Assembly (NCBI GenBank): GCA_963719515.1
Contig: CAVRCJ010000006.1
Location: 32,001-96,000, forward strand
DNA: 64,000 nt
Direction of reading: 5' to 3'
Source of the DNA: an uncultured cyanobacterium
Lineage (GTDB): Bacteria > Cyanobacteriota > Cyanobacteriia > CAKZMO01
Part shown: positions 1 to 64,000 of the stretch, in pieces
Layout of the letters: each line of letters starts with the position of its first letter
How positions within the stretch are numbered: position 1 is the first letter of the stretch
The notes under the pieces: generated by a model
Databases searched by the model: none
The model's input: the letters and a program-made list of their open reading frames with translations, nothing else
Told to the model about the DNA's origin: nothing
Program-made: the position numbers and the translations under genes

Positions 1-3000
1 CTCGCGCAGGATGTCGTCTTTGTGGGAGTAGCTGTAGAACAGGCGCAGGGTGTCTTGGCGCTCTAGCTTTGTCTTGGGCTTGCGGCTGCCTTCGATGTCG
101 ACGCCGTTGAGCAGATCTGGGACGCTCAGCTCAAGCAGCTCGCCATCAATAACCTCTTAAAGGCGCTACGCCCGTTTTCTTCTCGGACCAAGAGGTCTTT
201 GTAGCTCATGTTTTGGACGGACGGCCAGGAACAGGGACGAGCTTCTAGCGGCTTGAATTTGAAGCTGCTGTGGATGCGATCGAAGTCATAGCGGATGATG
301 GCGAGCAGGCGGCGACGACTGGCGATGGGGCCATCCACGCTGATGGAGACGCAGCGATCGGCGCGATCGGCTTTGACTAGGGCGCGGTTGCCCTCGAAGT
401 TTAAGATGACGCCGGTGCGCCAGCGCAGCTGGTGCTCGCTGAGAACGTGGGTGCGGACGATGAAGCGGGGCAGTAGGCCCTCGGGGAGGATGGGGTATTC
501 GTAGCGGAAGTTGAGGCATTCGGCGAGGTTAAACTCTTCCGCTGCTTTGGGCTGCTGCTTGTCGAGCAGGTCGGGGATGAGGTAGCGCTGCTCGTCTTCG
601 GCGAAGCGGAAGCACAGCTCGAATTTGCGCATTAGCTCTAGCAGGAAGCCGTAGCGTTCAGAAGGATAGTTCTTTGGATCTAGGATATCGACCAGGTTTG
701 ATTCCCTGAGTTCTCCTTTGGTCTCTGCTACGTTCGGAGCGTTGAGTAGGGCGTAGATGCCGTTAGTGACCCAGTGGGGATTGAGGACGTGGGTGTCGCG
801 GAGGCGGAGATCTTCTTTGTAGTTGAGGGCGATGCCCAGGCTGTGGAGGCTGACGGCGAGGGAGTCTTGAGCGCTGGAGTCGGTTTCTTCGTTCTCTTGG
901 CAGATCTCGCGATAGCGCTCGAAGGAAATATAGTTGTCGTCCATGCCGGACAGCCGCTCTTTGATGGTGAGCCAGCTTGCGGGGAAGGGGGTGCGTAGAT
1001 ATTCGAGGCGATCGGTTTCGCGCTTGATGGCGGCTTGCAGCTGATTTAAGCCCGATGTTTCGGCTTTACAGTCGGTGATGATGAACTCGCGGATGTTGGG
1101 AAACTTTTGCTGTAGCGCTCTGCGATTGACGTCGAAGGGGTGCTCGCTGAATTTGTTGAGGACGACAATGACGGGGGAGTCTGCCCCGAAGCTTTGAATC
1201 AGCTCCAGCCAGTAGTCGGCGTCTTCGTCTTCGTGACCCTGGCGACCGTTGAGCACCACGAGGTAGAGGCTGCGCTCGGTGAGAAAAAACTGGTGGGTGG
1301 AGTGCATGATTTCCTGACCGCCGAAGTCCCAGACGTGGAGGGTGATGTTTTCGCTGTCGTTGAGGACGACGGGCCACTGGGTGATTTGGATGCCTTCGGT
1401 TTTCTTAGAGTCGGGGTCAAAGGTATTTGTGATGAAGCGATCGACAAGGGAGGTTTTGCCGACGTTGCCGAAGCCGACGAGAATAAGTTTGGCTTCATTA
1501 AGGGGAGTGCGATCGCTCTGTATGCGGAAGTAGTAGTTGAGGATATCCTGGGGGTTAGCGGGCGTTGCGCTCTCTTCGTTGACCTGCTCCCAAGTCGGTC
1601 CCAACACCTCGACAGAGAGTCCTAATTTCTCGTTTTCGTGCAGGTAAAGCTGTGAAAGATTGCTCAGCTGCCCCAACTCCTTCGGCAACGCTGTCAGTTG
1701 ATTTTGGTTGAGGGAAAGCTCTGAAAGATTGCTCAGCTGCCCCAACTCCTTCGGCAACGCTGTCAGTTGATTTTGGTTGAGGGAAAGCCGTGAAAGATTG
1801 CTCAGCTGCCCCAACTCCTTCGGCACCGCTGTCAGTTGATTTTGGGAGAGGGAAAGCCTGAAAGATTGCTCAGCTGCCCCAACTCCTTCGGCACCGCTGT
1901 CAGTTGATTTTGGGAGAGGGAAAGCCGTGAAAGATTGCTCAGCTGCCCCAGCTCCTTCGGCACCGCTGTCAGTTGGTTTTGGGTGAGGTAAAGCTCTGAA
2001 AGATTGCTCAGCTGCCCCAACTCCTTCGGCACCGCTGTCAGTTGATTTTGGGTGAGGTAAAGCTCTGAAAGATTGCTCAGCTGCCCCAACTCCTTCGGCA
2101 ACGCTGTCAGTTGATTTTGGGTGAGGTAAAGCTCTGAAAGATTGCTCAGCTGCCCCAACTCCTTCGGCAACGCTGTCAGTTGATTTTGGTGGAGGTAAAG
2201 CTCTGAAAGATTGCTCAGCTGCCCCAACTCCTTCGGCAACGCTGTCAGTTGATTTTGGGTGAGGGAAAGCCTGAAAGATTGCTCAGCTGCCCCAACTCCT
2301 TCGGCAACGCTGTCAGTTGATTTTGGTGGAGGTAAAGCCTGAAAGATTGCTCAGCTGCCCCAACTCCTTCGGCAACGCTGTCAGTTGATTTTGGTCGAGG
2401 GAAAGCCGTGAAAGATTGCTCAGCTGCCCCAACTCCTTCGGCAACGCTGTCAGTTGATTTTGGGCGAGGTAAAGCTCTGAAAGATTGCTCAGCTGCCCCA
2501 ACTCCTTCGGCAACGCTGTCAGTTGATTTTGGGTCGAGGAAAAGCACGTGAAAGATTGCTCAGCTGCCCCAACTCCTTCGGCAACGCTGTCAGTTGATTT
2601 TGGGAGAGGTCAAGCCCTGAAAGATTGCTCAGCTGCCCCAGCTCCTTCGGCAACGCTGTCAGTTGATTTTGGGAGAGGGAAAGCCCTGAAAGATTGCTCA
2701 GCTGCCCCAGCTCCTTCGGCAACGCTGTCAGCTCTAATTCAGAAAGGTCTAGCTTAGTCGCACCGTCTGAAATTGCCTGCCGGATTCGCCTTTTCGCTTC
2801 CGCAAAACCCTCGGCCTCATCAGCCTCTGTCCATTCCCCATCAGGCACGATCGCCCCCAGCTCCACCCCCAGCACCCGAGCGATCGCCTCAACGCTCGAT
2901 CGCCCCACCCGCTTCCCCCGCTCCGGGTGAAACAACCGACTCACCGTATCCGCACTCATCCCCGCCCGCTCCGCGATCGCTGCAAAGCTCAACCCAAGCT

Positions 3001-3064
3001 CCGCCTTCGCCGCCCGTAGCCGCTCCACTCCCTCCGGGCTGGCCAAAAAACCGCGCTTGCTCAT
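1..3064 (-). CDS. HTH-LRR-Roc-COR-TIR (Roco family) protein, broken by several 1-2 bp indels, C-terminus runs off the window
   Basis: Pieces 2519-3064 (XRE-like HTH + LRR), 2313-2513, 1832-2239 and 126-1826 (LRR; Roc P-loop GFGNVGKTS, WDFGGQE, VLNK; COR with LNPHWVT, PEGLLPRFIVR). Bases ~158->1 read in another frame give EVIDGELLELSVPDLLNGVDIEG...LRLFYSYSHKDDILRE, a typical TIR start. Confidence 0.9.
1654..2732. repeat. Tandem 69-bp LRR-coding repeat, 16 units (last partial)
   Basis: Units start (+ strand GAAAGATTGCTCAGCTGCCCC) at 1654, 1723, 1792, 1860, 1929, 1998, 2067, 2136, 2205, 2273, 2341, 2410, 2479, 2550, 2619, 2688; encodes LTA(L/V)PKELGQLSNLSxLxLxQNQ. Confidence 0.97.
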
Positions 3065-3157
3065 GAGTCGCCGTCATCCGTCAATTTTTCTCCAGCGTAG
3101 CCGAATCAGCACAGCGCTGTCCTGCTCAAACCCCAACCATTTACCCCCCAACCCCCA

Positions 3158-3474
3158 CCGCCAAGCTCAAACCCTCAACCGCCGAGTTCGGAACCTCAAC
3201 CGCCAAGCTCAAACTCTCAACCATCAAGCTCAGAGCCTCAATTGCCGAGTTCGGGGCCTCAATCGCCAAGTATCGGAACCTCAACCATCAAGCTCAAACC
3301 CTCAACTGCCAAGCTCAAACCCTTCAATTGCCGAGTTCGGAACCTCAACCATCAAGCTCAAACCCTCAACCATCAAGCTAAAACCCTCAATTGCCGAGTT
3401 CGGAGCCTCAATTGCCGAGTTCAGAACCTCAATTGCCGAGTTCAGAACCTCAACCACCAAGCTCAAATCTCGAC
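3158..3474. repeat. 21-bp tandem repeat array, about 15 units
   Basis: Units such as CCGCCAAGCTCAAACCCTCAA / TTGCCGAGTTCGGAACCTCAA; two units are 22 bp. Confidence 0.92.
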
Positions 3475-3512: not shown

Positions 3513-3658
3513 ACGCCCGCAGACAAATCGCGGGCTGATTGAAGGCACCCACTAAAGTGGGTTAAAGCCATGTCCGCAAAGCGTTTCAGCGAGTGAAGTT
3601 TCTCCAGAGTCCACTTCAGTGGACGGCCCCCGGTAGTCCGCGATTTATCTGCGGACGT
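3513..3658. repeat. REPIN/MITE-like nested inverted repeat
   Basis: Arms 3513-3536 and 3635-3658 are 21/24 reverse-complementary; inner hairpins CCCACTAAAGTGGG and GTCCACTTCAGTGGAC; right arm overlaps a GTAG tetranucleotide. Confidence 0.7.
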
Positions 3659-3748
3659 TTGCTGCGAACGTTTGCTGCGGACTGCGGACGTTTGCTGCGG
3701 ACTGCAGACGTTTGCTGCGGGCTGCGGACGTTTGCTGCGGACGTTTGC
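3649..3748. repeat. 13-bp/7-bp tandem repeat (CTGCGGACGTTTG / CTGCGGA)
   Basis: Direct reading; derived from the right end of the preceding inverted repeat. Confidence 0.85.
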
Positions 3749-16136: not shown

Positions 16137-18221
16137 TTATCGTATTGGATCGGGCAAAGCTCCGATTCGATCACTTTCTTCACTCGCAGCCCCAATTTGC
16201 CACTGCCAGTCAGCGATCGCCTCGCGGGCCTCGACGTAGACGCTAGAGTCCTGCGGCACTAAAGCAGCCGCTTCAATGGCGCTGCTCAATTGCCCTTCGT
16301 AGGCTCGTTCGTAGGCCAAGTCCAGAATATTATTGCTCCAGCGCTCAAACAAGACTTGGGCTTGGTCGTAGTCGGCGTCTCGACGCTGAACCAGTCGTAA
16401 GTGGGCTATAGCCTCACTGTAGGAGGAAGCCTGGCTAGGCTTGATGATCGCCTCAGCGGAAGCCACCAGGCTTCGCTGCCCAGGGCGCCCCCCCTGACTG
16501 AGCTGCTGTTGCCACTGCTGAATCCGCTCCTGTGCCCTAGGGTAGACCGCTGCAACGGTAGGGGGAATGAGCTGGGCGGCACCGATGGCGTCGACGTAGT
16601 TCCCCACTTGGGCTCTGGCCTCGGCTAGGTCCACGACGGTGTTTCCCCAGCGCTGGATGTAAGACTGGGCCTCGTCATAGAGGGGCTGTCCGGGCTGAAT
16701 TCGCCCGGCGATGGCGATCGCTCGCGCAAAGTCGGAGGCCTGATTGACCGGGGTTTCCTCACGCTCCTGGTTGAGGGAAGCGATCGCCTGAGCCAAAATT
16801 TCGGCATTGACCTGCAGGGTGTCCTCGTCTGCAGGGCGAACCCCAGCGCCGCTTTGAGCGGCCTGCCGGAGCGCGGCGTAGTCTCGGTCTTGCTTGGCGG
16901 GAGGCACTGTATCGAGCCACGCTAGGGCGTCGTCAAACTGCTCCCCTTCGATAGCGGCCCGAGCAGCGGTCAGGGCGGCTGACGTGACCTCGTCGGAGGT
17001 TTCCACCTTGGCGGCATTATCGTCTGCCGGTCTCGGGCGGGCGGCGCTGAAGAGAGCCGTTCGGTTACGCACCACCACGCCGAGAATCAGCAGCGATAGG
17101 AGCCCAATTCCCCAAATGCCTATCCGCCGCCAGAATACCTGGTCAGCGTCGAGGGGACGAGGGGGCGAGGGGGTGGTGGTGGCCTGCGGAATGGGCGCGG
17201 GCGACGTGGGAATAGAGGGGTTGGGCGGTGCGGCAAGCGCGGGGGAGGAGGGGGCTAGGGTGCTTGGGCGGGCTGTACTGAGGTCGGTGAGGGAAGGGGA
17301 TGGCGCTGTCTCTGGACCTAGATAGATGTCCTCTAGAGCTGCTGGATTTACCCTTGCTGGGTCCGGCGCTGCTGGGTCCGCTTCCCGATACCCCGCTTCC
17401 TCTAGGGGATAGGCCCCCTCTTCAGGCACAGGAAAAGGGTTCTCAAGAGGCTTACCCGGTACGATTAGCTGGTAGCGCATGTCGTCTGGGACAAACGCCG
17501 CCGGGTTCTGCAGAGGCCGCCAGTGGTGCTCGCTCAACCGAGGGAGGCGATCGCCCAAGTCGAGGGCAAGCTGAGCGACGGTGATGCAGCTCTGGTGCAG
17601 ACTTTCTATCAGGGCGGCGGTAAACAGCCCCTGGCGCAGCGCCAAGGTTTCGTGGGGGCTTTGGTCAGGCCGACAGCTGAGGATAACCGTGACCCCGTGC
17701 TGCTCGGCAAGCGCCAAAGCAGATTTTCCCAGCACGGCGTCGGAAGATAGCCCTAAGCGCTTGAGGTCGAGCAGCAGTAGAGGACGGGGAGCCTTTCCCA
17801 AGGTTTCCAGCAGCGGACCTAGGGCTATAGCGGTTGAGGGCTTTTCCGGGTTGCTGTCCGCTGCCAAGAGATAGTCTTCTCCAGCGTCATGGAACCCGTA
17901 GCCGCTAAAGGCAAACCAGATCACGTCGTCTGTGGGGATCTGCGGATCGGTTTGCTGAGCGCTAGCGGCTTGCACCACGTCGGCCACCGCTTGATCTATG
18001 GCCGCTTTGGTGATTCCATCTCCTACATTCGAGGCGTCGCCGGAGGTGCTGTCGGACTTGAGGGCCGCTTTAGTAAGCAGATGACACTGGGCTTGGGGAA
18101 ATTCGGCATCGTCTACGCAATAGCGATAGAGTACAGCGGCGTCTCGCTCCGCGTACATTAGCGGCTGCTCAAGATACAAGTATTGATTGATGCCGACCGC
18201 GATCGCCCAGTACTGTGTCAT
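16137..18221 (-). CDS. Inactive caspase-like (peptidase C14/p20) membrane protein
   Basis: WAIAVGINQY...LMYAERDA; FSGYG and LDLKR replace the His/Cys dyad; Pro-rich linker, TM helix, repeated helical C-terminus. Confidence 0.8.
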   Translation of the reverse strand: MTQYWAIAVGINQYLYLEQPLMYAERDAAVLYRYCVDDAEFPQAQCHLLTKAALKSDSTSGDASNVGDGITKAAIDQAVADVVQAASAQQTDPQIPTDDVIWFAFSGYGFHDAGEDYLLAADSNPEKPSTAIALGPLLETLGKAPRPLLLLDLKRLGLSSDAVLGKSALALAEQHGVTVILSCRPDQSPHETLALRQGLFTAALIESLHQSCITVAQLALDLGDRLPRLSEHHWRPLQNPAAFVPDDMRYQLIVPGKPLENPFPVPEEGAYPLEEAGYREADPAAPDPARVNPAALEDIYLGPETAPSPSLTDLSTARPSTLAPSSPALAAPPNPSIPTSPAPIPQATTTPSPPRPLDADQVFWRRIGIWGIGLLSLLILGVVVRNRTALFSAARPRPADDNAAKVETSDEVTSAALTAARAAIEGEQFDDALAWLDTVPPAKQDRDYAALRQAAQSGAGVRPADEDTLQVNAEILAQAIASLNQEREETPVNQASDFARAIAIAGRIQPGQPLYDEAQSYIQRWGNTVVDLAEARAQVGNYVDAIGAAQLIPPTVAAVYPRAQERIQQWQQQLSQGGRPGQRSLVASAEAIIKPSQASSYSEAIAHLRLVQRRDADYDQAQVLFERWSNNILDLAYERAYEGQLSSAIEAAALVPQDSSVYVEAREAIADWQWQIGAASEESDRIGALPDPIR

Positions 18222-18537
18222 GCCTATCACTTTGACCTATATACGACGGCCCATGCTGTCCTACTGCTTCGGTCTACCCTACGGGATAGTGGCTACACAA
18301 ACGCATCACTACTCTCAGTGGCGACTGATCGATGTTTCACAATAACGCAATTCGTGCGGAAGCTACAAGGGGCCATTAGCTCATGGGAAGCTAAATGAGT
18401 TGAGCGCCGCGCGAGCCAATGGACATCACCATAAAGTTGCCACAAGACTGTTGTCATAAGGTCTGTATGATAAGTCGTCACAGCACAGAGATTCCGTACT
18501 AATATGGGGCAGATAATAGACCCTTGCCTTGCCGCCC

Positions 18538-52252: not shown

Positions 52253-54424
52253 CTAAACTCTCTCCGGAAAGCTGGGGATAGTTTCCGGCGGAGAATACTG
52301 GTAGTACTGATAGGTCTTGTCGTTGGTCAACTTCGAGCCGTTTGCTACCATACCAACAATAGGAATTTTAGCGGTATAGAGTTCGCCAAAAGCAGATTCT
52401 AGTTCTGAGAACTTCGCTTGACCTAGCCCTGCTGTCAACAGGACTCCTTGAGTTTTGGCCGCCACGATCAAAGCATCGGCAAACCCGAGAATAGGAGGGG
52501 TGTCGAAGATGACCATATCGAATTCTTTATAGACGCGCTTGAAGAATTCGTCCATGCGCGGAGTCGATAGAGTTCTACTTGGGTTTGGCGGAACTGGTCC
52601 CGAGGTGATGATAAATAAGTTCTCATCTGTGTAGGAGCGGACTAAAATATCCTCTAGCTCAAACTCGCCCGTGGCGTAGCTCGACAAACCCTTATCATTT
52701 GAAAGATTACAGAATTTGTGTAAGGTAGGTCGCCTCAAATCGGCATCCACGAGTAGGGTTCGCTGTCCCATCGACGCAATGGTGTGAGCGAGGTAAAAGC
52801 TGACGGTGCTCTTCCCAGAATTTGGGGTGGCGGAGCCAACGGTCAGCGCCTTAATAGAATTGTCTGGGTTACTGAGGTGAATATTGGTCGACAGTATCCG
52901 AAACGCTTCTGAGAAAGGCTGTGGAAGCGTATTTTGACTGTGACCGTTGCTGCCTAGGGAATGGCCATTAAGCCCATTTGTAGTCGAGTAAGCTGCGGAT
53001 AAGACCGGAAGTGGACCGTCACCCAACATCGGATTGTGGGGAATATCGCCAAGAATTGGAATGTTCGAGACTTCTTTAAGCTCTTTGACCGTATGAATTT
53101 TGCCGCTCATACGATCAATCAAGATTGCGGCCCCCGACCCTAAAATCAATCCTAGGAAAGTTCCTATGACCAGATTATTCTTCGGGTTGGCGAGAGCTGC
53201 TTTTGGATCCGTTGGTGGCGTTAGAATTTCCCACGGAACCTGTCGTTGAGCCGCATCGATTCGTAGCGCTTCGCGCTTGATCAAAAATTGATTTAGATTA
53301 TTGGTTGCAATCTCTAGGTCTCGCTGAATGTCGTTATACTGACGAGCTGCTGTAGACAGGCGTTTAATGCGCTCGTTCAGAACCCCGATATTTTTGCTTA
53401 GAGCCTGCTCCCGGTCGTTTAGCTCACGAATGCGGCTTGCCACCTCTTCTTGGACGCGAAAGCCTTCTCGCTCAAGCAGCGGCTCGAGGTTTTCCCGACG
53501 GTCTTCAATCACCCCGATTTCGGGGGTCCCTTCTAAATACAGCGACAGCTCGCCAGCTAGCTCACTATCGACTGCTAGAAGCTGGTTAATAAGCGCCTGA
53601 TAGCGATCGCTCTGCGAGAGTGCAGATGTTGCGGCCAGCTCTGGGCCCTGGGCGAGCTCCTGCCTCAAATTCTGATAGAGCTTCTCAGTTTGCTCTATCT
53701 CCACTCTAAGGTTGAGCTGCTCGTTAGTGAACGCGGCAGCCTGCTGTGTAATTTGCTCGCCTTCGAGAACTGGATCGATGAGGTTGTACTTCTGACGCAG
53801 ACTCTCTAAGTTTGCTTCTAGCTGGTCGACCTGCGCTTTAACAAAGGGCAGCTGCTCATCAACAAAGTCGATGCCCCGAGAAATGTCGTTCTGTCGGTCT
53901 TCCAGGCTATATCTCAAGTAAGCCGTTGAGACAAACTCCAAAACGTCAGCCACTTCACTTGATGTATCACCCTGATATTCAACGGTCAGAACTTTACCCG
54001 TATCGTTGGGTGAGATCTTCAAGCCGCGAATGACCTTCGCGTAGGTAATATTGGGGTAAATCCTCTGAAGCTCTTCAACAATAGGCTCCATAAGTCGAGG
54101 GCTTTTCAGAATCTTTACCTGTGTTTCATCAACCGTAATGCTAACGACGTCAGACTGATTGCTAAGGGCCTCTGGACTCAGAGTAGAGATAATTTCAGTT
54201 TCTAGCGTGACTGGCGGTGTAAGTAGCTCAAAACCGGCCTGGTAGGTCGGCGTATCTGTCACGGCTTTGAGAACAGCTGCGGAAGCCGTTAGGGCTGTTA
54301 TCCCAACAATCCACAATACCTGACGCCTCAGGGATGCGGCTAATAGATCTAGCCTGAGACCTCCTTCCTGGTCTTGCTCTTGAGGAAGCACTCCTGCTGC
54401 CGGTAAGTTAAGTTCAGATGCCAT
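52253..54424 (-). CDS. wzc: Polysaccharide co-polymerase / tyrosine kinase (Wzc/GumC)
   Basis: Two TM + coiled coil; SATPNSGKST, DADLRRP, DTPP, YQYYQY tail. Confidence 0.92.
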   Translation of the reverse strand: MASELNLPAAGVLPQEQDQEGGLRLDLLAASLRRQVLWIVGITALTASAAVLKAVTDTPTYQAGFELLTPPVTLETEIISTLSPEALSNQSDVVSITVDETQVKILKSPRLMEPIVEELQRIYPNITYAKVIRGLKISPNDTGKVLTVEYQGDTSSEVADVLEFVSTAYLRYSLEDRQNDISRGIDFVDEQLPFVKAQVDQLEANLESLRQKYNLIDPVLEGEQITQQAAAFTNEQLNLRVEIEQTEKLYQNLRQELAQGPELAATSALSQSDRYQALINQLLAVDSELAGELSLYLEGTPEIGVIEDRRENLEPLLEREGFRVQEEVASRIRELNDREQALSKNIGVLNERIKRLSTAARQYNDIQRDLEIATNNLNQFLIKREALRIDAAQRQVPWEILTPPTDPKAALANPKNNLVIGTFLGLILGSGAAILIDRMSGKIHTVKELKEVSNIPILGDIPHNPMLGDGPLPVLSAAYSTTNGLNGHSLGSNGHSQNTLPQPFSEAFRILSTNIHLSNPDNSIKALTVGSATPNSGKSTVSFYLAHTIASMGQRTLLVDADLRRPTLHKFCNLSNDKGLSSYATGEFELEDILVRSYTDENLFIITSGPVPPNPSRTLSTPRMDEFFKRVYKEFDMVIFDTPPILGFADALIVAAKTQGVLLTAGLGQAKFSELESAFGELYTAKIPIVGMVANGSKLTNDKTYQYYQYSPPETIPSFPERV

Positions 54425-54500
54425 TCAGATTTCCTTAATGCCTACTAGACTGCCACAAAATCTACGGGTCTTACCCACGGTACTAATCTAATACAGGCTG

Positions 54501-55943
54501 CTAGTCAAAGACTCTAAATAACTGACTGGGCAAGGTGAATATCGATAAAGCTCGGCTTAATGGTGTCAAAACACCATCAAGAGCATCCCCAATACTAGCT
54601 GTTGCCGAGCGCTTGACTACGATAACGTCGTTGTTTCGTAGAAGCGGGTTCATTGCTTCGTCAATACCCTCGCTAAAGTCAATGCTGATGGAGCGCTGGG
54701 TTGCTGTACCATCCAAGTTTAACCGAATCAGCTCGACTTGCCCTCGCCTCGCTCGATTGTTGAATCCTCCGGCTGCGAGTAGTCCTTGACTGAGCGGTGT
54801 GTTGGGCGGCACTTCCACAACACCGGGTTGATCGACTTCCCCCACCACGTTGACTCTAATCGTATCTGGAGAAAAGCTGGCTGCCGCGATTTCGGACAGT
54901 TCTTCGGTCAGCACTTCACTTGCTTTGGGAACGAAAACCGTATCTCCCTCCTGCAGAGTGATATCTTCGATGAGGTCACCTTCCTTCAAAAGCTGCCAAA
55001 GGTTTACGCCGATTGTCTGTTCTCCGCCGTTGCGCGTTCTGCGATAGACCGCGATCTGCCGAATATTTGCCTCAGGCTTGATCCCGCCAGCAACCTGAAT
55101 AGCCCGAGTTACGGTCGGCGGCAGACCTGCCGCGCCTGCTCCACCGGGTATACCTGCATCTCCAGTACGAGCGGTGCCCGTAACGGTATAAGGCCCTGGC
55201 CGAAAAACTTCACCTACGACCGCAATGTTAAGAGGCCGGCTTTCGGCTGCTGCAAAGCTGGACGCCGCAATCTGAGCCGATTCTTGCGCGTCAAAGCCGT
55301 CTCGCGTCGGAACGAAAATAGTGTCCCCATCCCTCAGCATTATGTTTTGTTGGAGATTGCCGGTTGTGAGAAACTGCCAAAGATTGGCGGTAATCACTTG
55401 ACCATCTGGGCCTACAGAGCGCTGAACAGTAATCTGGCGTAGGTTCGCAGACTGGGTAACGCCGCCTGCAGCCTCTAGAGCCCCAACCAAAGAAGGGAAC
55501 TGATTGCCTTCTCGCTGTATGGTGTATGCTCCTGGGCTAAACACCTCACCGGCCACAGCGATTCTCAGAGCTCTAGGGTTGGTCAGAAGAACAGTAATGA
55601 TTGGTCGGCGCAGTCTTGACGCGTAGGCCTGCGAAATCGCAGCTTCGGCTTGCTCAATCGTGAGTCCGGCAACGTATACTTGACCAACGGCGGGTAAGCT
55701 GAGCGTACCGCTAGCCAAAACTTCATAGCTGCCACTGTAGTCTGGAATTCGGAAGACGTTGATTTGAAGCTGATCGCCCGCTCCTAAAATGTAATTGCCC
55801 GGCGGCTGACGCGTCGCTGCAGAGTTGTCAGAGCTTCCCGTAGGAAGTGGTGCCGACGACTGAGCTAGTGCAATCGGCTGGGGCAAGCTCGATAGCAGAA
55901 GCAGCGATGTTAGGCAAAACTGAGCGCAACGATTCAGTGTCAT
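54501..55943 (-). CDS. wza: Polysaccharide export protein with SLBB domains (Wza/OPX)
   Basis: YILGAGDQL, repeated VxGEV..PG SLBB units. Confidence 0.92.
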   Translation of the reverse strand: MTLNRCAQFCLTSLLLLSSLPQPIALAQSSAPLPTGSSDNSAATRQPPGNYILGAGDQLQINVFRIPDYSGSYEVLASGTLSLPAVGQVYVAGLTIEQAEAAISQAYASRLRRPIITVLLTNPRALRIAVAGEVFSPGAYTIQREGNQFPSLVGALEAAGGVTQSANLRQITVQRSVGPDGQVITANLWQFLTTGNLQQNIMLRDGDTIFVPTRDGFDAQESAQIAASSFAAAESRPLNIAVVGEVFRPGPYTVTGTARTGDAGIPGGAGAAGLPPTVTRAIQVAGGIKPEANIRQIAVYRRTRNGGEQTIGVNLWQLLKEGDLIEDITLQEGDTVFVPKASEVLTEELSEIAAASFSPDTIRVNVVGEVDQPGVVEVPPNTPLSQGLLAAGGFNNRARRGQVELIRLNLDGTATQRSISIDFSEGIDEAMNPLLRNNDVIVVKRSATASIGDALDGVLTPLSRALSIFTLPSQLFRVFD

Positions 55944-56084
55944 AGCAGTAAGGTGAGGCGGACTGTCTAAATCAATATCTTCTCAAGGATGGGGTCTACA
56001 TCCGGCTCTATTTTGACTTCGAAGAGCAAACTTGATGATTATGTTAGTCTACTTGTTCTATTCCACACGGCTAGTTACTGTAGA

Positions 56085-56870
56085 CTACCCTCTCGATGAA
56101 CTGTGCGATCGCCGCTGTTGCACAGACCGCTGCATAATCTGCTGAAGCGCCAACCACATAAAAGGCGGAATGGTTTGAAAATATCGTTTCCACAACCTTT
56201 TAGGTTCTTGCTTGAGTCTGTATAACCATTCCAGCCCCCCGTATCGTACCCACTTGGGAGCCCATTTTTGCACTCCAGCATAGACTGGAAATACTGCTCC
56301 AACGCCAACCATGACCGACTGCACATCACCCTTATGCTTCATCATCCAGTATTCTTGCTTAGGGCAGCCCAAAGAAACAAAAGTCAGGCCCGCACCGCTG
56401 CGGTTGATGCGCTCGATCAGCTCAGCATCCTCCGTATCGGTTAGGGGGCGAAACGGCGGCGACTCAGTGCCTGCGAGCTCAAGCCCTGGAAATTCTTGCT
56501 TAAGCTTGCCCTCCATTTTCTCTAGAACGTCTGGGGTGGAGCCTAGGAGATAGAGTGAAACGTTCTCTCTTTCGCAGCGCTCACAGACCGCCAAGAATAT
56601 GTCCATACCCGCCACCCGCTCTTGATCTCGTACTCCAAGAGCTTTCATAACCCATACGATGGGCATGCCGTCAGGAGTATTTATGTCTGATGTCTCAAGG
56701 ATTCGACGTAGGGCTGGATTCCAGTGGGATTCCATCACCATGTGAACGTTGGTGACACAGACCACTCGACTAGAGTTTTGCTGAGCCCACGAAAGCATTG
56801 ACGCGATTTGCTCTTTAAAGGGAAGCGCCGTTACGGGTGTACGCACAACGTCGATTTGGGGTAAATTCAT
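56085..56870 (-). CDS. WecB/TagA/CpsF glycosyltransferase
   Basis: PDGMPIVW, SLGCPKQE, GLEWLYRL.QEPKRLWKRY. Confidence 0.93.
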   Translation of the reverse strand: MNLPQIDVVRTPVTALPFKEQIASMLSWAQQNSSRVVCVTNVHMVMESHWNPALRRILETSDINTPDGMPIVWVMKALGVRDQERVAGMDIFLAVCERCERENVSLYLLGSTPDVLEKMEGKLKQEFPGLELAGTESPPFRPLTDTEDAELIERINRSGAGLTFVSLGCPKQEYWMMKHKGDVQSVMVGVGAVFPVYAGVQKWAPKWVRYGGLEWLYRLKQEPKRLWKRYFQTIPPFMWLALQQIMQRSVQQRRSHSSSRG

Positions 56871-57799
56871 AAGTACAAAGTTAAGTTGATTCTTCTATTG
56901 GGAGGATGGCTTCTGCAGAGTATAGCTAAGCAATTGTGCCTGATTTCGTATTGGCCGTAGCTATCAATTGATGGAGACGTTGAGATGATGCAGCATCCCA
57001 TTGATCTGTATATTGCCTTCAAGTAAGCCGCCCTTACGAAAAGCTCTCGTAATAAAATTCCGTAAAGAGTAAAGGAGATATGAAATAGCTTTAGATAGCA
57101 TCGCTAGAGGGGAAGAAATAGAGCACTTCCCGAGCGACTTTACCCGCACGCCTAGCACGCTTGTGACTTTCGAGAGGAAGCGTAGAGCACCAAAACAGGG
57201 GAGAAGAAGGTATGTCTCATAGCTCAGTATAGCCTCCGTAATAGTTTTTCCGTAAGGAATACTACAGGGGTTCACGAAAAATTTATAATTTACTTCACGA
57301 GTTCTACATGCGCTAATGTAGCGGAAGTAATTTACAATGGCCGCACATCCCTTGCGCGACATGGGTTCAGCATGAGATACTCAGCTACACTATCCGTTGA
57401 AAAATAAGGCTAAGCTACAGCTTGGCATCTATTGACACCTTCCTAATTTTCATTTGCCTTCTAAAGTTTCACTAAAGCTTTACCAAATGTTAAGGTCCGG
57501 AGTGAGTAGCTGCAGATTTGATGAGCTAGCATGGCGGAAGGTTATCTCAGCGCACAGGAACTGAAGCCAGGCAATTGTATAGAGAACATAGACAACATGT
57601 TGGACAGCTTCTAGCTTCAACGTTTTGGCAGCAGCTGAAATACGCGGTTTATCAATACAAATTATAGGTACTATCTGACGAACTTTCGCGCACAAAACTT
57701 TAGTCGGGCGCGTAAGACTTGAATGTAATAGGTTTTTTTAGTATACCCTCTTGAGCGCTGAATGCGATCGACCTGAGTTTTGTTATTGTTATTACCTAT

Positions 57800-59614
57800 A
57801 TGCTCAAACAACTATCAAAATTTTTCTATATTGTCTCCGAAACAAGAAGAAAGCTCCTTTTGCTTTTACTGATGGCAGCTCTAACATCAGTTTTGGAGGC
57901 ATTTGGTGTGGGTTTGATCGGTCCATTCATCGCAATAGCCTCAAACCCTAGCTCAATCGGTGATATTCCAATTCTGAATTCAGTCTATGCAACGCTTGGA
58001 TTTAGATCTTACGAAGACTTTGTCGTTGCACTAGGGCTGTTTACGATTGCAGCTTTCTGTGTCAAGTCAGTTGCATATGTCGTTACAAACGCCTACGTAT
58101 TTAAAGTTACCTTTGGCCAGAAGAAAGCACTGGTATCGCGGATGATGAGTGCTTACTTGTCAGCTCCCTATGTATTCTTCTTGAAGAAGAATACTTCTAG
58201 CATTGTCCAAAAAATATCGATTGAAACGACGACTTTCTCGCAAGACTACATGATGTCGCTTCTGATGGCAGTGGTCAACTTTATCACTATTATCCTCTTG
58301 CTAGGACTGCTTGCCAAAACCAATCCGGTTTTCTTAATGGGGATTCTGGGAGTCATTCTGCTTATTTTGATAGCCTTTCAGCTTTTGAGTTCTCGATTCA
58401 AGCGCTGGGGTCGTATGAGGACTGAAGCGGATCAGAATATGATTCGCTCTGTAAACCACAGTCTGGGAGGTCTTAAAGAGACGCGCGTTATCGGTTGCGA
58501 ATCTTATTTCGAAGAGCAAATCTTAGCCTATGGAAACCAGTGGGCTAGAGCGGTGACTCTCTTCCGAAGCTCCAAAATGGTGTTTCCGGTCATCGTACAG
58601 ACTAGTTTGATTGTGACCGTCATTGGATATATATGCGGATCTTTGGTTTTCGCAGATCAAGGGCTAGAGAGTATAACATCCGTCATGGCAGTCTTTGTAG
58701 CAGCGTCGTTAAGATTGGTTCCGTCGGTTAATCAATTTGTAAATTCAATTGGAAGCCTCGTCAACTCTAGTCACATCCTGGACATCATATATCTAGACTT
58801 AAAGGAAATAGAAAGTCTGAATAGCATTAAAAACAGCCAATACAAAGATGATTTATCGCAGGCTCTTGAAGAAAATCCGTCCTTTAAATCAAACTCAGAT
58901 GCCAATCTAAATTTTAGGAAGAGTGTTGAGCTTCAAAACGTATCTTACAAGTATCCCAGTTCATCCGAGCCCGCAGTCAAAGACATTTCTTTGAGCATAA
59001 AGAAAGGTGAGTCGGTTGCACTGATTGGCAAATCTGGAGCAGGGAAGACAACCCTAGTAGACATCATCTTGGGTTTGCTTAAACCCCAAGACGGCGATAT
59101 CCGCGTTGATGGCGTCTCTGTTTACTCAGACTTGCGCTCTTGGCAAGGTCTTGTTGGCTACATTCCTCAATCCATCTTTTTAATGGATGACACAATTGAG
59201 CGCAACATCGCCTTTGGCGTCCCTGACCATCTAATTGAGCACGAGAAACTTCACAAGGCGATAGAATCGGCTCAACTCAATGATTTGATAGAGAGCTTAC
59301 CGGATGGCATAAGTTCTCAGATGGGAGAGCGTGGCATTCGACTCTCTGGAGGGCAGCGCCAGCGTATCGGTATCGCTCGTGCTTTATATCACGAAAGAGA
59401 AATTTTAGTGCTCGACGAAGCAACTGCAGCTCTCGACAATGAGACAGAGAGGTTGGTGACCGAATCAATAAATGCTTTGGCAGGGAAAAAAACGCTGATT
59501 ATTATCGCTCATCGTCTTTCGACTATTAAACAGTGCGATCGCGTTTTTGAGCTCGGGAATGGAAAACTTATAAATTCTGGCACTTATAGCGAAGTTGTTA
59601 AGAATACCGTCTAA
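57800..59614 (+). CDS. ABC exporter (TM + ATPase, HepA/PglK-like)
   Basis: GKSGAGKTT, LSGGQRQR, LDEATAALD. Confidence 0.92.
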   Translation: MLKQLSKFFYIVSETRRKLLLLLLMAALTSVLEAFGVGLIGPFIAIASNPSSIGDIPILNSVYATLGFRSYEDFVVALGLFTIAAFCVKSVAYVVTNAYVFKVTFGQKKALVSRMMSAYLSAPYVFFLKKNTSSIVQKISIETTTFSQDYMMSLLMAVVNFITIILLLGLLAKTNPVFLMGILGVILLILIAFQLLSSRFKRWGRMRTEADQNMIRSVNHSLGGLKETRVIGCESYFEEQILAYGNQWARAVTLFRSSKMVFPVIVQTSLIVTVIGYICGSLVFADQGLESITSVMAVFVAASLRLVPSVNQFVNSIGSLVNSSHILDIIYLDLKEIESLNSIKNSQYKDDLSQALEENPSFKSNSDANLNFRKSVELQNVSYKYPSSSEPAVKDISLSIKKGESVALIGKSGAGKTTLVDIILGLLKPQDGDIRVDGVSVYSDLRSWQGLVGYIPQSIFLMDDTIERNIAFGVPDHLIEHEKLHKAIESAQLNDLIESLPDGISSQMGERGIRLSGGQRQRIGIARALYHEREILVLDEATAALDNETERLVTESINALAGKKTLIIIAHRLSTIKQCDRVFELGNGKLINSGTYSEVVKNTV

Positions 59615-59659
59615 TTCTGAGCTTATGGAAATCTTTATGTCTTCTGGGAGTTGAACTAT

Positions 59660-60553
59660 ATGGTAATGCCAAACTTTATCATAATTGGCGCTGCTAAAGC
59701 TGGAACAAGCTCACTCCACTATTATCTTAGACAGCACCCTCAAATATTCATGCCCTTCTTAAAAGAGACAAACTTTTTTGCTTTGGAAGGAGAAGAGCTC
59801 AACTTCAAAAATCCTGATCAAGCTATCAATCAAAATTCGATAACAACTATAGAAGATTACCAGAAACTATTCGAGAGCGCAGCGCATGAAACCGCCATTG
59901 GAGAAGCATCGCCGCTATACTTTTATTCTAAGAAAGCCGCAAAGGCAATCAAACATTATATCCCAGACGCGAAGCTGATTCTAATTCTTCGAAATCCTAT
60001 AGATAGAGCCTTTTCTTGCTATACTCATTTGCTTCGTGAGGGTTACGAAACACTTTCTTTTGAGGATAGTTTGCTCATAGAGGATCAGAGAATTAATGAA
60101 AACTGGGCACATCTTTGGCATTATACCAAAGGCGGATTTTACTATGACCAGCTCAAGGCGTATTACGATCTTTTTGAGGAAGACAAAATCGGAATATTTC
60201 TTTTTGAGGATTTTTGCAAGAGTTCCATCACAGTTCTGAGCGATATTTTCGATTTCTTAGGTGTGGATGATACGCATAAACTTGACCTAACCAAGCAAAA
60301 TGTTTCTGGAATGCCTAAAAGCATGATTCTTCAAAAGTTTTTCACCAGAAAAAATTTTGCAAGATCAGCTTTGCAAACAATTATTCCTAATAAGATTCGA
60401 AGTAATGCTGCTCAAAATATAAAGAAGTGGAACTTGGGCAAAAAGCCAACTTTGGCATCGGAAACAAGAGATTCTCTTAAGGAAGTGTATAAAGAAGATA
60501 TTTTGAAGCTTCAAGGCCTTGCTAATAGAGATTTTTCGAGCTGGCTTAATTAA
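59660..60553 (+). CDS. Sulfotransferase
   Basis: PAPS motifs GAAKAGTSSL and LRNPIDRAFS. Confidence 0.92.
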   Translation: MVMPNFIIIGAAKAGTSSLHYYLRQHPQIFMPFLKETNFFALEGEELNFKNPDQAINQNSITTIEDYQKLFESAAHETAIGEASPLYFYSKKAAKAIKHYIPDAKLILILRNPIDRAFSCYTHLLREGYETLSFEDSLLIEDQRINENWAHLWHYTKGGFYYDQLKAYYDLFEEDKIGIFLFEDFCKSSITVLSDIFDFLGVDDTHKLDLTKQNVSGMPKSMILQKFFTRKNFARSALQTIIPNKIRSNAAQNIKKWNLGKKPTLASETRDSLKEVYKEDILKLQGLANRDFSSWLN

Positions 60554-61216
60554 ATGTATGAGCTTAAGCAAGTTTTATACTCTTCGGAAAATTGGGCTCG
60601 GAGTTTTACAGGAAAGTCTTACTGATTACGTTTTGCTGAGCGCGCCAATATGTTTACCTTCATCAAACTTGAGAGGGATTAGTTCGAAAGAAGTTGTTTT
60701 GAAGATGGTGAACATTTAATTAGATATTTCCAATCAACTTAGGAAAATATTTAGCGCGTGATCGAACTAGAATCTTAATTCAGTAGAAAAAAGTATCATT
60801 AGAATTCAGAAAATTATGGCGATTTTGAACCCGTAAAAAAATGTATACTTCCAACCTTTTTTCGTCAAAGCCCTTGCTTGACACCCTGTCCGAAAGAACT
60901 AAAGGAAAACTGCTTTCCTTTTTAAGAATGACGTTCTTAGTCTTTAAGGATTGATAGACAGAGATTTGTTTCATTGGCTCTCGATATAGATCAACCGATT
61001 ATTGACGGCGTTAGTTTTATGAAAATAGGTAAAAGCTTGTTGCCGCAACGGTGCTTTTCTGTTTGTGTACGTCTTCTACTACTACTTTTCCTCAGCCGGT
61101 TGACCGAGCACTATAAAAGCTGTTTGTTTAGCTTTCGAGAAGAATCTCTAGTAGAAAATAAAGCTAATTGCATTAAATATCCGCAGAATTAGCGGTTTTA
61201 CTATAAAGGAATTAAG

Positions 61217-62101
61217 ATGCTTACATCAATACAAAAAAAATATGAACTTATCCGCTTAGCCGAACCAAAAACTATCCTCAGACGCTTATATGTGAAGCTA
61301 AATAGCGATTGGGAAGGGGAAGGCGGTTTTATAAAAAGGCTAATTGTCAATCACGACTTTCGCTTTATATACTGCCCAATATATAAGAATGCCTCCACAA
61401 GTATGATGGCCGCTTTGCTTGAACTATCAAAGACAAAAGCGATAGGAGAAGGACAGTTCTCGTCAGATGTATCTGTTCGCTCCTATATAAATTTGAACTA
61501 CAGTCTTGCCAATTATACAAAATTACAGGCGAAAGAGATTCTTGATAGCGACTACTTTAAGTTTACTATCGTCAGAAACCCTTGGGCTCGTCTAGTATCG
61601 ACTTATTCTAACTACTTTATTCGACTGCCTGCTGAGAAGAAAGTAATTTCAAAAATTGCGCAGAATGCTTCCAAGCACATTTACGGAGAGCATTTGTCTG
61701 CAGAGAAAAGCGACTCGATTACATTTGAGCAATACGTAGATTATGTTGTTTCAAAAAGCGACTCTCAGCTCGATCCACACAGCGGCTCTCAAAGCCAGTA
61801 TTTAGCTGGAATTCAATATGATTATGTAGCAAAATTGGAGACCCTAAAAGCTGATATAGAGTACATCAAGGAAAAGCTAAATCTTCCAATTACCATGGAG
61901 AAATTCAATAAAACATCTTATAAAAAATATATAAAATCTGACCCGCTAAGCGAAGATTATTCTACGCTTACTCCTAAGCAGCTTAGAAATTTGGAGAGTA
62001 AAATTCCTGCTTATCAACAGTTTTACACTTCGGAATTGGTTGAAGCAGTTAGGAACAGATATAATGACGACGTTACTCTCTTCAGCTACTCTTTTGAGTA
62101 A
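61217..62101 (+). CDS. Sulfotransferase family 2 (carbohydrate sulfotransferase-like)
   Basis: YCPIYKNASTS, FTIVRNPWARLVS.Y, Y..D..LFSY. Confidence 0.88.
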   Translation: MLTSIQKKYELIRLAEPKTILRRLYVKLNSDWEGEGGFIKRLIVNHDFRFIYCPIYKNASTSMMAALLELSKTKAIGEGQFSSDVSVRSYINLNYSLANYTKLQAKEILDSDYFKFTIVRNPWARLVSTYSNYFIRLPAEKKVISKIAQNASKHIYGEHLSAEKSDSITFEQYVDYVVSKSDSQLDPHSGSQSQYLAGIQYDYVAKLETLKADIEYIKEKLNLPITMEKFNKTSYKKYIKSDPLSEDYSTLTPKQLRNLESKIPAYQQFYTSELVEAVRNRYNDDVTLFSYSFE

Positions 62102-62213
62102 GTTCTATCGCTTGTCAGGAACTGTAGCCTAATAACTTCAAGCGGATACTACAAATACGTTTTGAAACATTTTAAATCAGCGGAAACAACTCAAGATTAA
62201 AGAGCAAGCAACA

Positions 62214-63284
62214 ATGCCAAGCAGTTGTAGAGTCCCCTGTTTCGTCAGTATCGTTATCAACAATTTTAACTACGATCGCTTTCTCTCTCAAGCGATTGAC
62301 AGTGCGTTGAACCAAACTAGTTCCTGCATTGAGGTTATTGTCGTAGATGACTGCTCCACAGATGACTCCCGAAAGATCATAGAGAGCTATGGCGATCGCA
62401 TTATTCCGGTTCTGCATCAAACCAACGGCAAACAGGGTGCCGCCTTCAACAGCGGCTTTGCGAAAAGCCAAGGAGATATTGTTCTATTCCTAGACGCTGA
62501 CGACTACCTTTACCCTCACGCAGTTGAACATATTGTCGCCGCCTGGACCCCAGAACTGTCTAAAGTTCACTTTCGTCTAGACGTCGTCAATGCTGATGGT
62601 GAACCTCGTGGATTCTCCTACCCACAGGGTGGCACCCTAGACACTGGAGACATCAGTCGATCTGTTCTGACCGTAGGAACCTACACCGGCGTACCGACAA
62701 GCGGCAATGCTCTGAGCCGCAAAATGCTTGAGCAGGTCATGCCAATTCCCCAGGAGTTCAATACAACTTCCGATGACTATCTCTCAGTGCTGATGCCGCT
62801 CTACGGAAAAGTTGCTGCCGTAGAAACGCCGCTTGGGTCATATCGCATTCATACCAGTAATCAATGGGCAATGTCGAACGTGACAAGCGATCGCTTTCAT
62901 CGCTTTATCCGTCATGATATCCAGCGCTGCGAACTTCTAAAGGTGAAGGGTCGTCAGCTTGGCTATACAGTCCCCGACGATCTAGAGACGCGCTTTTTTG
63001 GTCGAATATGGTCCCGTCTCTCTTCACTCAAATTCGATCCAGAGCACCATCCCTTACCGGGGGATCGGCCGCTGGAGCTTGCTGCCGCTGGTATCAAAGC
63101 CGTCTGGCGGTATTCTGACCACACGCTAAAAAAGCGACTTGTTTTCACCCTATGGTTTTTGTGGGTAGGCATCATGCCATCTTTTTTGGCCAAGCCAGCT
63201 ATTGTCTGGTTATTTGCCCCCCAGCTGCGCCCTAAGCCGCTTCATTGGACCTTGGCAAAGCTGCGTACATTCACAAGCGCATAA
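62214..63284 (+). CDS. Glycosyltransferase family 2
   Basis: VSIVINNFNY, VDDCSTD, FLDADD. Confidence 0.93.
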   Translation: MPSSCRVPCFVSIVINNFNYDRFLSQAIDSALNQTSSCIEVIVVDDCSTDDSRKIIESYGDRIIPVLHQTNGKQGAAFNSGFAKSQGDIVLFLDADDYLYPHAVEHIVAAWTPELSKVHFRLDVVNADGEPRGFSYPQGGTLDTGDISRSVLTVGTYTGVPTSGNALSRKMLEQVMPIPQEFNTTSDDYLSVLMPLYGKVAAVETPLGSYRIHTSNQWAMSNVTSDRFHRFIRHDIQRCELLKVKGRQLGYTVPDDLETRFFGRIWSRLSSLKFDPEHHPLPGDRPLELAAAGIKAVWRYSDHTLKKRLVFTLWFLWVGIMPSFLAKPAIVWLFAPQLRPKPLHWTLAKLRTFTSA

Positions 63285-63359
63285 AATTTATAATTTAGCC
63301 ATTCTCTTCTAAACGTTATTGACAGCAGCCGTTGAATTGAACTACTACAAAAAATCACT

Positions 63360-64000
63360 ATGACTATCGCTTCCCAACCTTCTACACAAGAAAAGTTGTC
63401 TCAGCAAAGCGCAAATAAAACTATAAGAGTTTTATTTGTCAGCCATACCTACGTTGTGGGAATCAATCAAGGCAAGCTCAAGGCTATTGCTGAAGCCGGG
63501 GCCGAAGTAGGATTGCTCGTCCCTCAAATTTGGAACGCTCCTCAGTGGAACAAAGATCTTGAGATTGAAAAGCCCTACCCTCAGATAAAAATCTACACTT
63601 CTCCTGTTTGGTTTGGAGGCAGAGCGGGCGCTCATCTATACCCTCCTCAAGAGATCTTCAAAGCTATTCGAGATTTTCAACCTGACATCATTCAAGTTGA
63701 AGAAGAAGTTTTCTCGCTAGCCGCTTTTGAAGTTTGCTTTTGGGCAAGGTACTTCAAGATTCCAGTCGTACTCTTCGGTTGGGAAAATATGGATCGTCAG
63801 CTTGCACTTCCCCGTCGCTGGCTGCGTCAGTACGTATTTGATACCGTTCAAGGAATTCTGGCGGGCAATCATGAAGGCGCAGAACTCGTCAAGAAATGGG
63901 GATATGACAAGATTGTTGAAGTAATGCCTCAAATGGGCGTTGATACTGAGGTCTTCTCGCCGAGCTTAAGGAAGAACCAAAACCCCAACGTTCCACTCTG
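63360..64000 (+). CDS. Glycosyltransferase family 4, N-terminal part (runs off window)
   Basis: ATG 63360 open to the end: RVLFVSHTYVVGINQGK...FQPDIIQVEEE...FGWEN...PQMGVD; absent from the ORF track because it has no stop. Confidence 0.85.
   Translation, partial: MTIASQPSTQEKLSQQSANKTIRVLFVSHTYVVGINQGKLKAIAEAGAEVGLLVPQIWNAPQWNKDLEIEKPYPQIKIYTSPVWFGGRAGAHLYPPQEIFKAIRDFQPDIIQVEEEVFSLAAFEVCFWARYFKIPVVLFGWENMDRQLALPRRWLRQYVFDTVQGILAGNHEGAELVKKWGYDKIVEVMPQMGVDTEVFSPSLRKNQNPNVPL

Follow-up and report, generated by a model that had tools for sequence, protein, structure and literature searches.

A leucine-rich repeat array with near-identical units and variable strand codons in a cyanobacterial gene of the predicted counter-invader Roco family

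We report a leucine-rich repeat (LRR) array in a 64,000-nucleotide stretch of DNA from an uncultured cyanobacterium (hereafter the window), which forms the LRR domain of a solitary HTH-LRR-Roc-COR-TIR gene and in which, probably, recombination erases the differences among repeats while selection keeps new residues on the predicted ligand face. The domain order, the codon-level pattern of variation, the position of the variable residues on one face and the recurrence of the pattern in paralogues and relatives are matters of direct observation. Judged by its domain profiles, the gene is a member of the bacterial "AP-GTPase counter-invader" (Roco) family, and the array is likely to be the ligand-sensing part of a protein from a family predicted to act as immune receptors. 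Both the predicted receptor family and this kind of repeat evolution are known; the window array is an extreme example, broken as assembled. A first-pass annotation had proposed a candidate diversifying receptor, which agrees with a predicted immune-type receptor family but had missed both the identity of that family and the broken state of the assembled gene.

The gene lies on the minus strand and runs off the left edge of the window, with the following features in window coordinates (G000 denotes the genome and C6 the contig).

1..3064, continuing past the left window edge to about G000:C6:31595, minus strand: whole Roco gene HTH-LRR-Roc-COR-TIR, with its start ATG at 3064 and nine 1-bp frame breaks as assembled
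2855..3025, minus strand: N-terminal XRE/Cro-type helix-turn-helix (Pfam HTH_31, E 1e-9)
2733..2810, minus strand: helical N-cap and first divergent LRR strand, from the translation and relatives with a similar cap
1630..2732, minus strand: LRR array of half a unit, 15 full 69-bp units and a C-cap strand, with variable codons X1, X2 and X3
1149..1490, minus strand: Roc GTPase (PF08477, E 4e-30), with P-loop and DxxG motifs intact in the translation
564..983, minus strand: COR-A (PF16095, E 1e-40)
159..521, minus strand: COR-B (PF25497, E 9e-31), with 1-bp breaks near 242, 225 and 169 in the alignment to the C13 paralogue
1..39, continuing off-window to about C6:31600, minus strand: start of the TIR_2 effector (PF13676, E 7e-17, 62.5 bits against a cut-off of 28)

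The Roc and COR profiles all scored above cut-off, and TIR_2 follows COR across frame breaks in the window gene and in frame in two relatives (L031, L051). The TIR domain retains a glutamate at what we take to be the position of the catalytic residue. It also scores 183 bits against a PADLOC ThsB model, but the adjacent ThsA expected of Thoeris is absent, the genes next to the Roco gene being a P450 and a sulfate permease, with no defence-island context. NCBIfam matches to type III effectors and internalins were discarded as generic LRR similarity, all of them far under cut-off, and a promoter scan returned no site on the strand of the Roco gene.

Other features of the window were recorded along the way. 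Directly upstream of the gene, at positions 3150-3467, a repeat of 21 bp (3 x 7 bp) is present about 15 times, with two off-period indels. It resembles the cyanobacterial heptamer repeats, and relatives of it occur at C3:382226 and beside a Roco gene in G002 (L215). At 3513-3748 lies a REP-like region in which an imperfect inverted repeat of 48 bp (3513-3560 / 3611-3658) precedes tandem repeats of 13 and 20 bp; part of the region has a copy at C3:572002-572148. A 697-aa protein with an N-terminal caspase-like (Peptidase C14) domain is encoded at 16137-18230 on the minus strand, 13 kb from the Roco gene, and positions 52253-64000, low in GC (37-52%), hold a polysaccharide cluster whose genes include Wzc-like, export, ABC, sulfotransferase and glycosyltransferase members and which probably arrived by horizontal transfer.

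Tandem Repeats Finder detects the array at 1642-2731 with 15.8 copies, a 69-bp period and 95% match. The tandem array of the first-pass annotation is therefore real, except that the sixteenth variable strand of its count (QYH) sits in the diverged C-cap and does not belong to a full unit. Among the 11 in-frame units, 9 of 69 positions vary, six of them being bases 1 and 2 of the three X codons and the others an L/V site and two synonymous sites, just as had been described, although the units sharing the L/V change lie at about 1824-2032 and not at 1792-1998. In pairwise comparison of these 11 units the X codons show pN 0.45 and pS 0, and the scaffold pN 0.010 and pS 0.034. The conserved leucine codons of the units are CTT before X2 and CTC after it. 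The sixteen X triplets listed earlier fare less well: the frameshifts leave four of them (units 3, 6, 7 and 13) uncertain, their repairs not being unique. Units 6, 7 and 13 retain a two-base X1 remnant for which G, E or R are all possible sources, while unit 3 equals unit 5 except for two extra bases and a run-length shift, which makes its F doubtful; the secure triplets come from 11 units and only nine of them are distinct.

The first-pass annotation had also called the hypervariability codon-targeted, a reading for which the invariant third base of the X codons might be taken as evidence. Homogenisation at the level of the scaffold predicts the same outcome, given that just 1 of 20 scaffold third positions varies in the window array, and the invariance is hence no evidence of targeting by itself. 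The reading was rejected on comparison as well, because third positions do vary in 10 foreign homogenised arrays, where 21 extra alleles were counted at the third position versus 38 and 48 at the first and second.

When the longest in-frame stretch (137 aa) was modelled with AlphaFold from a 34-row alignment (pLDDT 96.6), the strand fell exactly on X1-L-X2-L-X3, and the model superposes on solved LRRs with a TM-score of about 0.95. X1-X3 thereby occupy positions i, i+2 and i+4 of the LRR beta-strand, all on one face, as had been expected; in LRR geometry the non-leucine strand residues point to the concave side.

The nine frame breaks comprise five in the array (single-base indels, two in unit 3 and one each in units 6, 7 and 13), three in COR-B and one in TIR near C6:31696. 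By way of background, a control that is blind to closely spaced compensating shifts found frame breaks in 4 of 146 genes (175 kb), which corresponds to 0.08 expected for the Roco gene. We lean modestly towards consensus errors over real decay. All five array indels fall within the variable zone of 17 bases, which by chance would have a probability of about 0.001-0.004, and it is in this zone that reads stemming from other units would conflict. The array with its five indels carries just one private scaffold substitution. Frame-breaking gaps occur in 8 of the 19 arrays of the assembly whose period is divisible by 3 (one of which is still open), and two contigs of the sequencing run labelled X1, about 98% identical, show 3 and 1 gaps over intervals that hold 3 and 1 breaks, a match at the level of intervals; of the array itself, the contigs from three small-share DNA runs give no usable view. 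Decay is favoured by the four breaks outside the repeats, in sequence whose closest copy is 82% identical, by Roc-COR departures at 10 conserved columns versus a median of 3 (range 0-10) in 26 relatives, and by the IS elements that interrupt related genes.

The genome holds six genes with Roc plus COR-A. The paralogues on C8, C4 (22-residue units) and C13 combine homogenised scaffolds with variable strand codons, each on a different scaffold, and the C8 and C4 arrays read open. The closest paralogue (G000:C13:101790-104830, L110) is also HTH-LRR-Roc-COR-TIR; it is 86% identical in Roc-COR, and single bases are missing at about three places in its N-cap and first LRRs. Another (G000:C1:166173-170300, L113) bears a 392-aa transposase-like ORF inside its LRR array, and a third (G000:C4:32293-36053, L112) has its C-terminal domain in another frame, where a same-genus homologue (L224) reads through. 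In a same-genus genome (L013:534-816, G002:C152) the HTH start of the family follows a recN-like gene and is cut by a transposase-like element. The genome looks rich in receptor-type repeats, with near-identical arrays of period 96-138 bp at C1:266092, C1:342688, C1:370818, C10:17554, C11:113576, C5:57946, C5:168626 and C17:115643, some of them TPR-like in translation and several with frame-breaking gaps.

Among the best 80 relatives in named genomes, Nodosilinea-, Halomicronema- and Leptolyngbya-type cyanobacteria rank on top. Crude patterns applied to the 75 that could be parsed, 10 of which are cut upstream of Roc by a contig end and 3 interrupted there by N gaps, found an HTH-like motif in 26 and a TIR-like motif in 61. 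Translations of four loci (L050, L092, L094, L105) show other N-termini, with extra sequence inserted between HTH and LRR or with TIR- and ATPase-like domains before or instead of the LRRs. No conserved gene neighbourhood, operon or defence island emerged across 13 loci inspected. Homologues adjoining the same neighbour gene carry 13, 9 and 8 LRR motifs (L039, L046, L047), and among 8 near-identical pairs of relatives, 3 show a difference in unit number (2, 9 and 2 units), with junction homologies of 74-102 bp that allow misassembly. The four same-genus genomes, in which most Roco matches lie at contig ends, yielded no orthologue with an intact array, an exact 30-nt search of metagenome contigs for sister-strain arrays gave 0 matches, and a plasmid search returned 69 records, 45 of them from Leptospira.

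The comparison set comprised 47 arrays, each with five or more 23-residue units in register. Within it the window array combines the lowest scaffold pS with the highest ratio of X pN to scaffold pS (12). Of 45 foreign arrays, 23 have a ratio above 1, among them all 10 whose scaffold pS is below 0.35, and the excess weakens in diverged arrays; all such ratios are descriptive only, since units are not independent. Foreign arrays from independent assemblies (L031, L099, L153, L204) have scaffolds that are about 95% identical, which means that the phenomenon also exists outside this assembly, even if its extreme degree may be particular to it. Taken with the three paralogues, the recurrence in other bacteria points to a family trait of which the window copy stands at the extreme.

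With regard to the origin of the variation, the first-pass annotation had suggested a search for donor cassettes and for a reverse transcriptase with a template repeat, and the genome, rated 100% complete in 21 contigs, yielded neither. Reverse transcriptase profiles (PF00078, TIGR04416) and the accessory Avd profile (PF22296) had 0 matches, the 69-bp unit matches only its own array and the C13 paralogue (about 85%), and blastn and tblastn find LRR copies in Roco genes only. In addition, the 16 adenines of each unit are invariant and two of the six variable X sites lack an A allele, so that adenines are not preferentially variable. These results exclude a diversity-generating retroelement (DGR), although DGRs too vary codon positions 1 and 2, and the missing donor cassettes led us to reject shuffling of the kind seen in lamprey VLRs or brown algae.

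The proposal that the scaffold is homogenised while binding residues are shuffled is supported in that the homogenised scaffold goes with a nonsynonymous excess at X, and recombination or recurrent change between X codons is seen as well. In a four-gamete test 16 of 36 site pairs were incompatible. Incompatible pairs 5-6 bases apart together with those at adjacent X3 bases indicate both fine-scale exchange and recurrent mutation, the latter being needed because recombination alone is insufficient for adjacent bases within X3. Two results run against a simple model: adjacent units do not resemble each other significantly more than distant units do (p 0.14), and synonymous sites beside the X codons show no elevated diversity (0.18 vs 0.24, with an elevation in 3 of 10 arrays), which makes the variants unlike old balanced alleles. 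The variation is likely to reflect concerted evolution combined with diversifying selection, as in fungal HET-E repeats.

Several known systems bear on this assignment. Kaur et al. (2021) described proteins combining LRR, AP-GTPase, COR and an effector as predicted counter-invader systems whose LRRs evolve rapidly and whose effectors fall into at least 24 types, one of which is TIR (PMC8195603). The window gene resembles these prokaryotic Roco systems in its LRR, Roc, COR and C-terminal TIR, its several paralogues per genome and its fast-evolving LRRs; section 15 of that study gives no codon-level repeat analysis (PMC8195603). Among its supplementary entries is a 1176-aa LRR+AP-GTPase+COR+TIR protein from Nodosilinea P-1105 that agrees with our relative L059 in strain and length. 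That entry omits the N-terminal HTH, and an HTH-LRR fusion did not turn up in the parts of the supplement covered (12 of 13 files, one of them incomplete), though the rest may list it (PMC8195603). The LRR-Roc-COR portion is homologous to the Chlorobium tepidum Roco (CtRoco; PDB 6HLU, 8R4B) and to the RocCOR entry 4WNR, with E-values of 4e-73 and 2e-90; the window gene differs by its additional HTH and the strong homogenisation of its LRR array. CtRoco is driven into the monomeric state by GTP, its LRR rotating by 135 degrees, and its open form is stabilised by a nanobody that sits in the curvature of the LRR (PMC11052575).

The closest parallel in repeat evolution is with fungal HNWD NLRs (het-e, het-d), which share near-identical repeats, few hypervariable binding-face codons, concerted evolution and trouble in assembling the repeats (PMC4986451, PMC12222747); the window repeats are likewise over 85% identical, with hypervariable binding-face codons. 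The fungal proteins differ in pairing a NACHT/STAND ATPase with WD40 repeats and in having a known ligand, HET-C, whereas the window gene pairs Roc-COR with LRRs and is no member of that group. Brown-algal LRR-ROCO genes have the Roco architecture and positively selected concave LRR residues, but in them every LRR has an exon of its own and introns hold spare copies, while the window gene has neither introns nor donors (PMC3341825, PMC11378527). DGRs share the variation at codon positions 1 and 2, a putative sensor and a multicellular bacterial host, and differ in that their target is a C-type lectin and not an LRR array lacking RT, Avd and template repeat (PMC10907252). A regime of concerted evolution and selection has been suggested for bacterial WD and TPR repeats (10.1101/2020.01.06.895854), and a Roc-COR-CHAT protease partners a bacterial gasdermin (10.1101/2021.06.07.447441). 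The terms LRR and Roc do not occur in a 2026 survey of bacterial STAND receptors (PMC13581612), and our literature search, which covered few subscription papers, found no codon-level study or functional test of bacterial Roco LRRs.

One further observation against a model of recombination plus selection is the leucine codon before X2, which is mostly the rare codon CTT, a reproducible nucleotide-level oddity that such a model does not predict unless units are exchanged between paralogues. CTT accounts for 84% of the leucines before X2 and 9% of other LRR leucines in 33 cyanobacterial loci, and for 69% and 10%, respectively, in 20 class-wide Roco loci picked independently by LRR profile, the site being the most biased codon of the unit in both locus sets. 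Of 87 loci, 60 have it as their majority codon, the Roc-COR of the same genes showing 10% CTT, and so do all six paralogues (11/11, 5/7, 11/13, 14/14, 3/3 and 3/5 parsed motifs), despite their 31-86% Roc-COR identity and a CTT share of 0-27% among their Roc-COR leucines; the signature appears in four of eight LRR loci with no Roc seen, and its excess over other LRR leucines is kept in 30 of 36 arrays with diverged scaffolds. Codon-pair bias was rejected as the cause, codon context predicting just 12-25%; before TAC, leucine is CTT in 17-18% of cases in ordinary genes and in 84% in LRR units. Together with the recurrent change at adjacent bases, these data speak for an account that we nonetheless regard as unlikely, in which cyanobacterial Roco sensors would be diversified by a dedicated, RT-independent DNA mechanism (a recombinase, a targeted mutator or guided gene conversion) that recognises or needs a short motif near the variable codons and alters bases 1 and 2 of X1-X3, or by strand segments exchanged within a genome-wide pool, in either case needing the frame G-CTT-NNY-CTY. 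Such a process has no candidate enzyme or conserved neighbour gene in our data, the repeats give no signal of mRNA structure (z +1.6), and near-identical gene pairs differ by whole units and not by demonstrated X-codon changes. The CTT signal is moreover weaker outside cyanobacteria (31% before X2 vs 14% at other LRR leucines in 21 other named genomes). Some Roc-COR leucine columns are equally uniform among close relatives (up to 0.97, mostly preferred codons) and other unit positions are also strongly biased in a clade- or set-specific manner, so that common descent, or a transfer of strand segments from locus to locus with hitchhiking, may be enough to account for the signature.

A slightly more doubtful account holds that the X residues tune binding to self or to a non-immune partner, or are merely tolerant surface positions, the protein being a signalling GTPase and not a defence receptor. 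Although this would fit the absence of defence context, the N-terminal HTH, the lack of a tested bacterial Roco in the literature search and the fact that the X residues belong to classes common in LRR strands generally, tolerance alone cannot account for the 12-fold excess of X pN over the synonymous rate within the same units, the TIR at the C-terminus is an effector typical of conflict systems, and the paralogues show rapid turnover, IS elements having inserted into the C1 copy and the same-genus HTH fragment. We give least credence to an assembly artefact, whereby polishing with reads placed on the wrong unit would have flattened the scaffold and scrambled the X codons. The clustering of the array indels and the gapped arrays described above would agree with it, and the four most homogeneous arrays at third positions, out of 53, all come from this assembly; yet the pattern recurs in the independent assemblies with nearly identical scaffolds, scaffold variants survive in the window array and the C8 and C4 arrays are open. 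An artefact may thus affect the degree of homogeneity and the order of units, but not the phenomenon.

Returning to homogenisation by recombination with selection on the ligand face, unequal crossing-over and short conversion tracts would change the number of units and recombine the X codons. By analogy with CtRoco, a foreign protein, probably from a phage, is predicted to bind the concave face; a ligand on this variable face would shift the dimer/monomer switch of Roc-COR and activate the TIR domain, which in turn might deplete NAD or signal, leading to cell death in a filament. More speculatively, the HTH may autoregulate the gene or bind DNA.

The bacterial receptors tested so far use sensors other than Roco LRRs, and a Roco sensor would place the nucleotide switch known from work on bacterial LRRK2 homologues in a physiological context. 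A sensor with its specificity reduced to three residues per identical repeat would be unusually easy to test. Should the CTT signature reflect a diversifier acting at the DNA level, it would constitute a new route to receptor diversity in bacteria, and one dependent on the G-CTT-NNY-CTY frame would amount to bacterial, VLR-like, antibody-style LRR repertoires coupled to a GTPase switch and a TIR effector.
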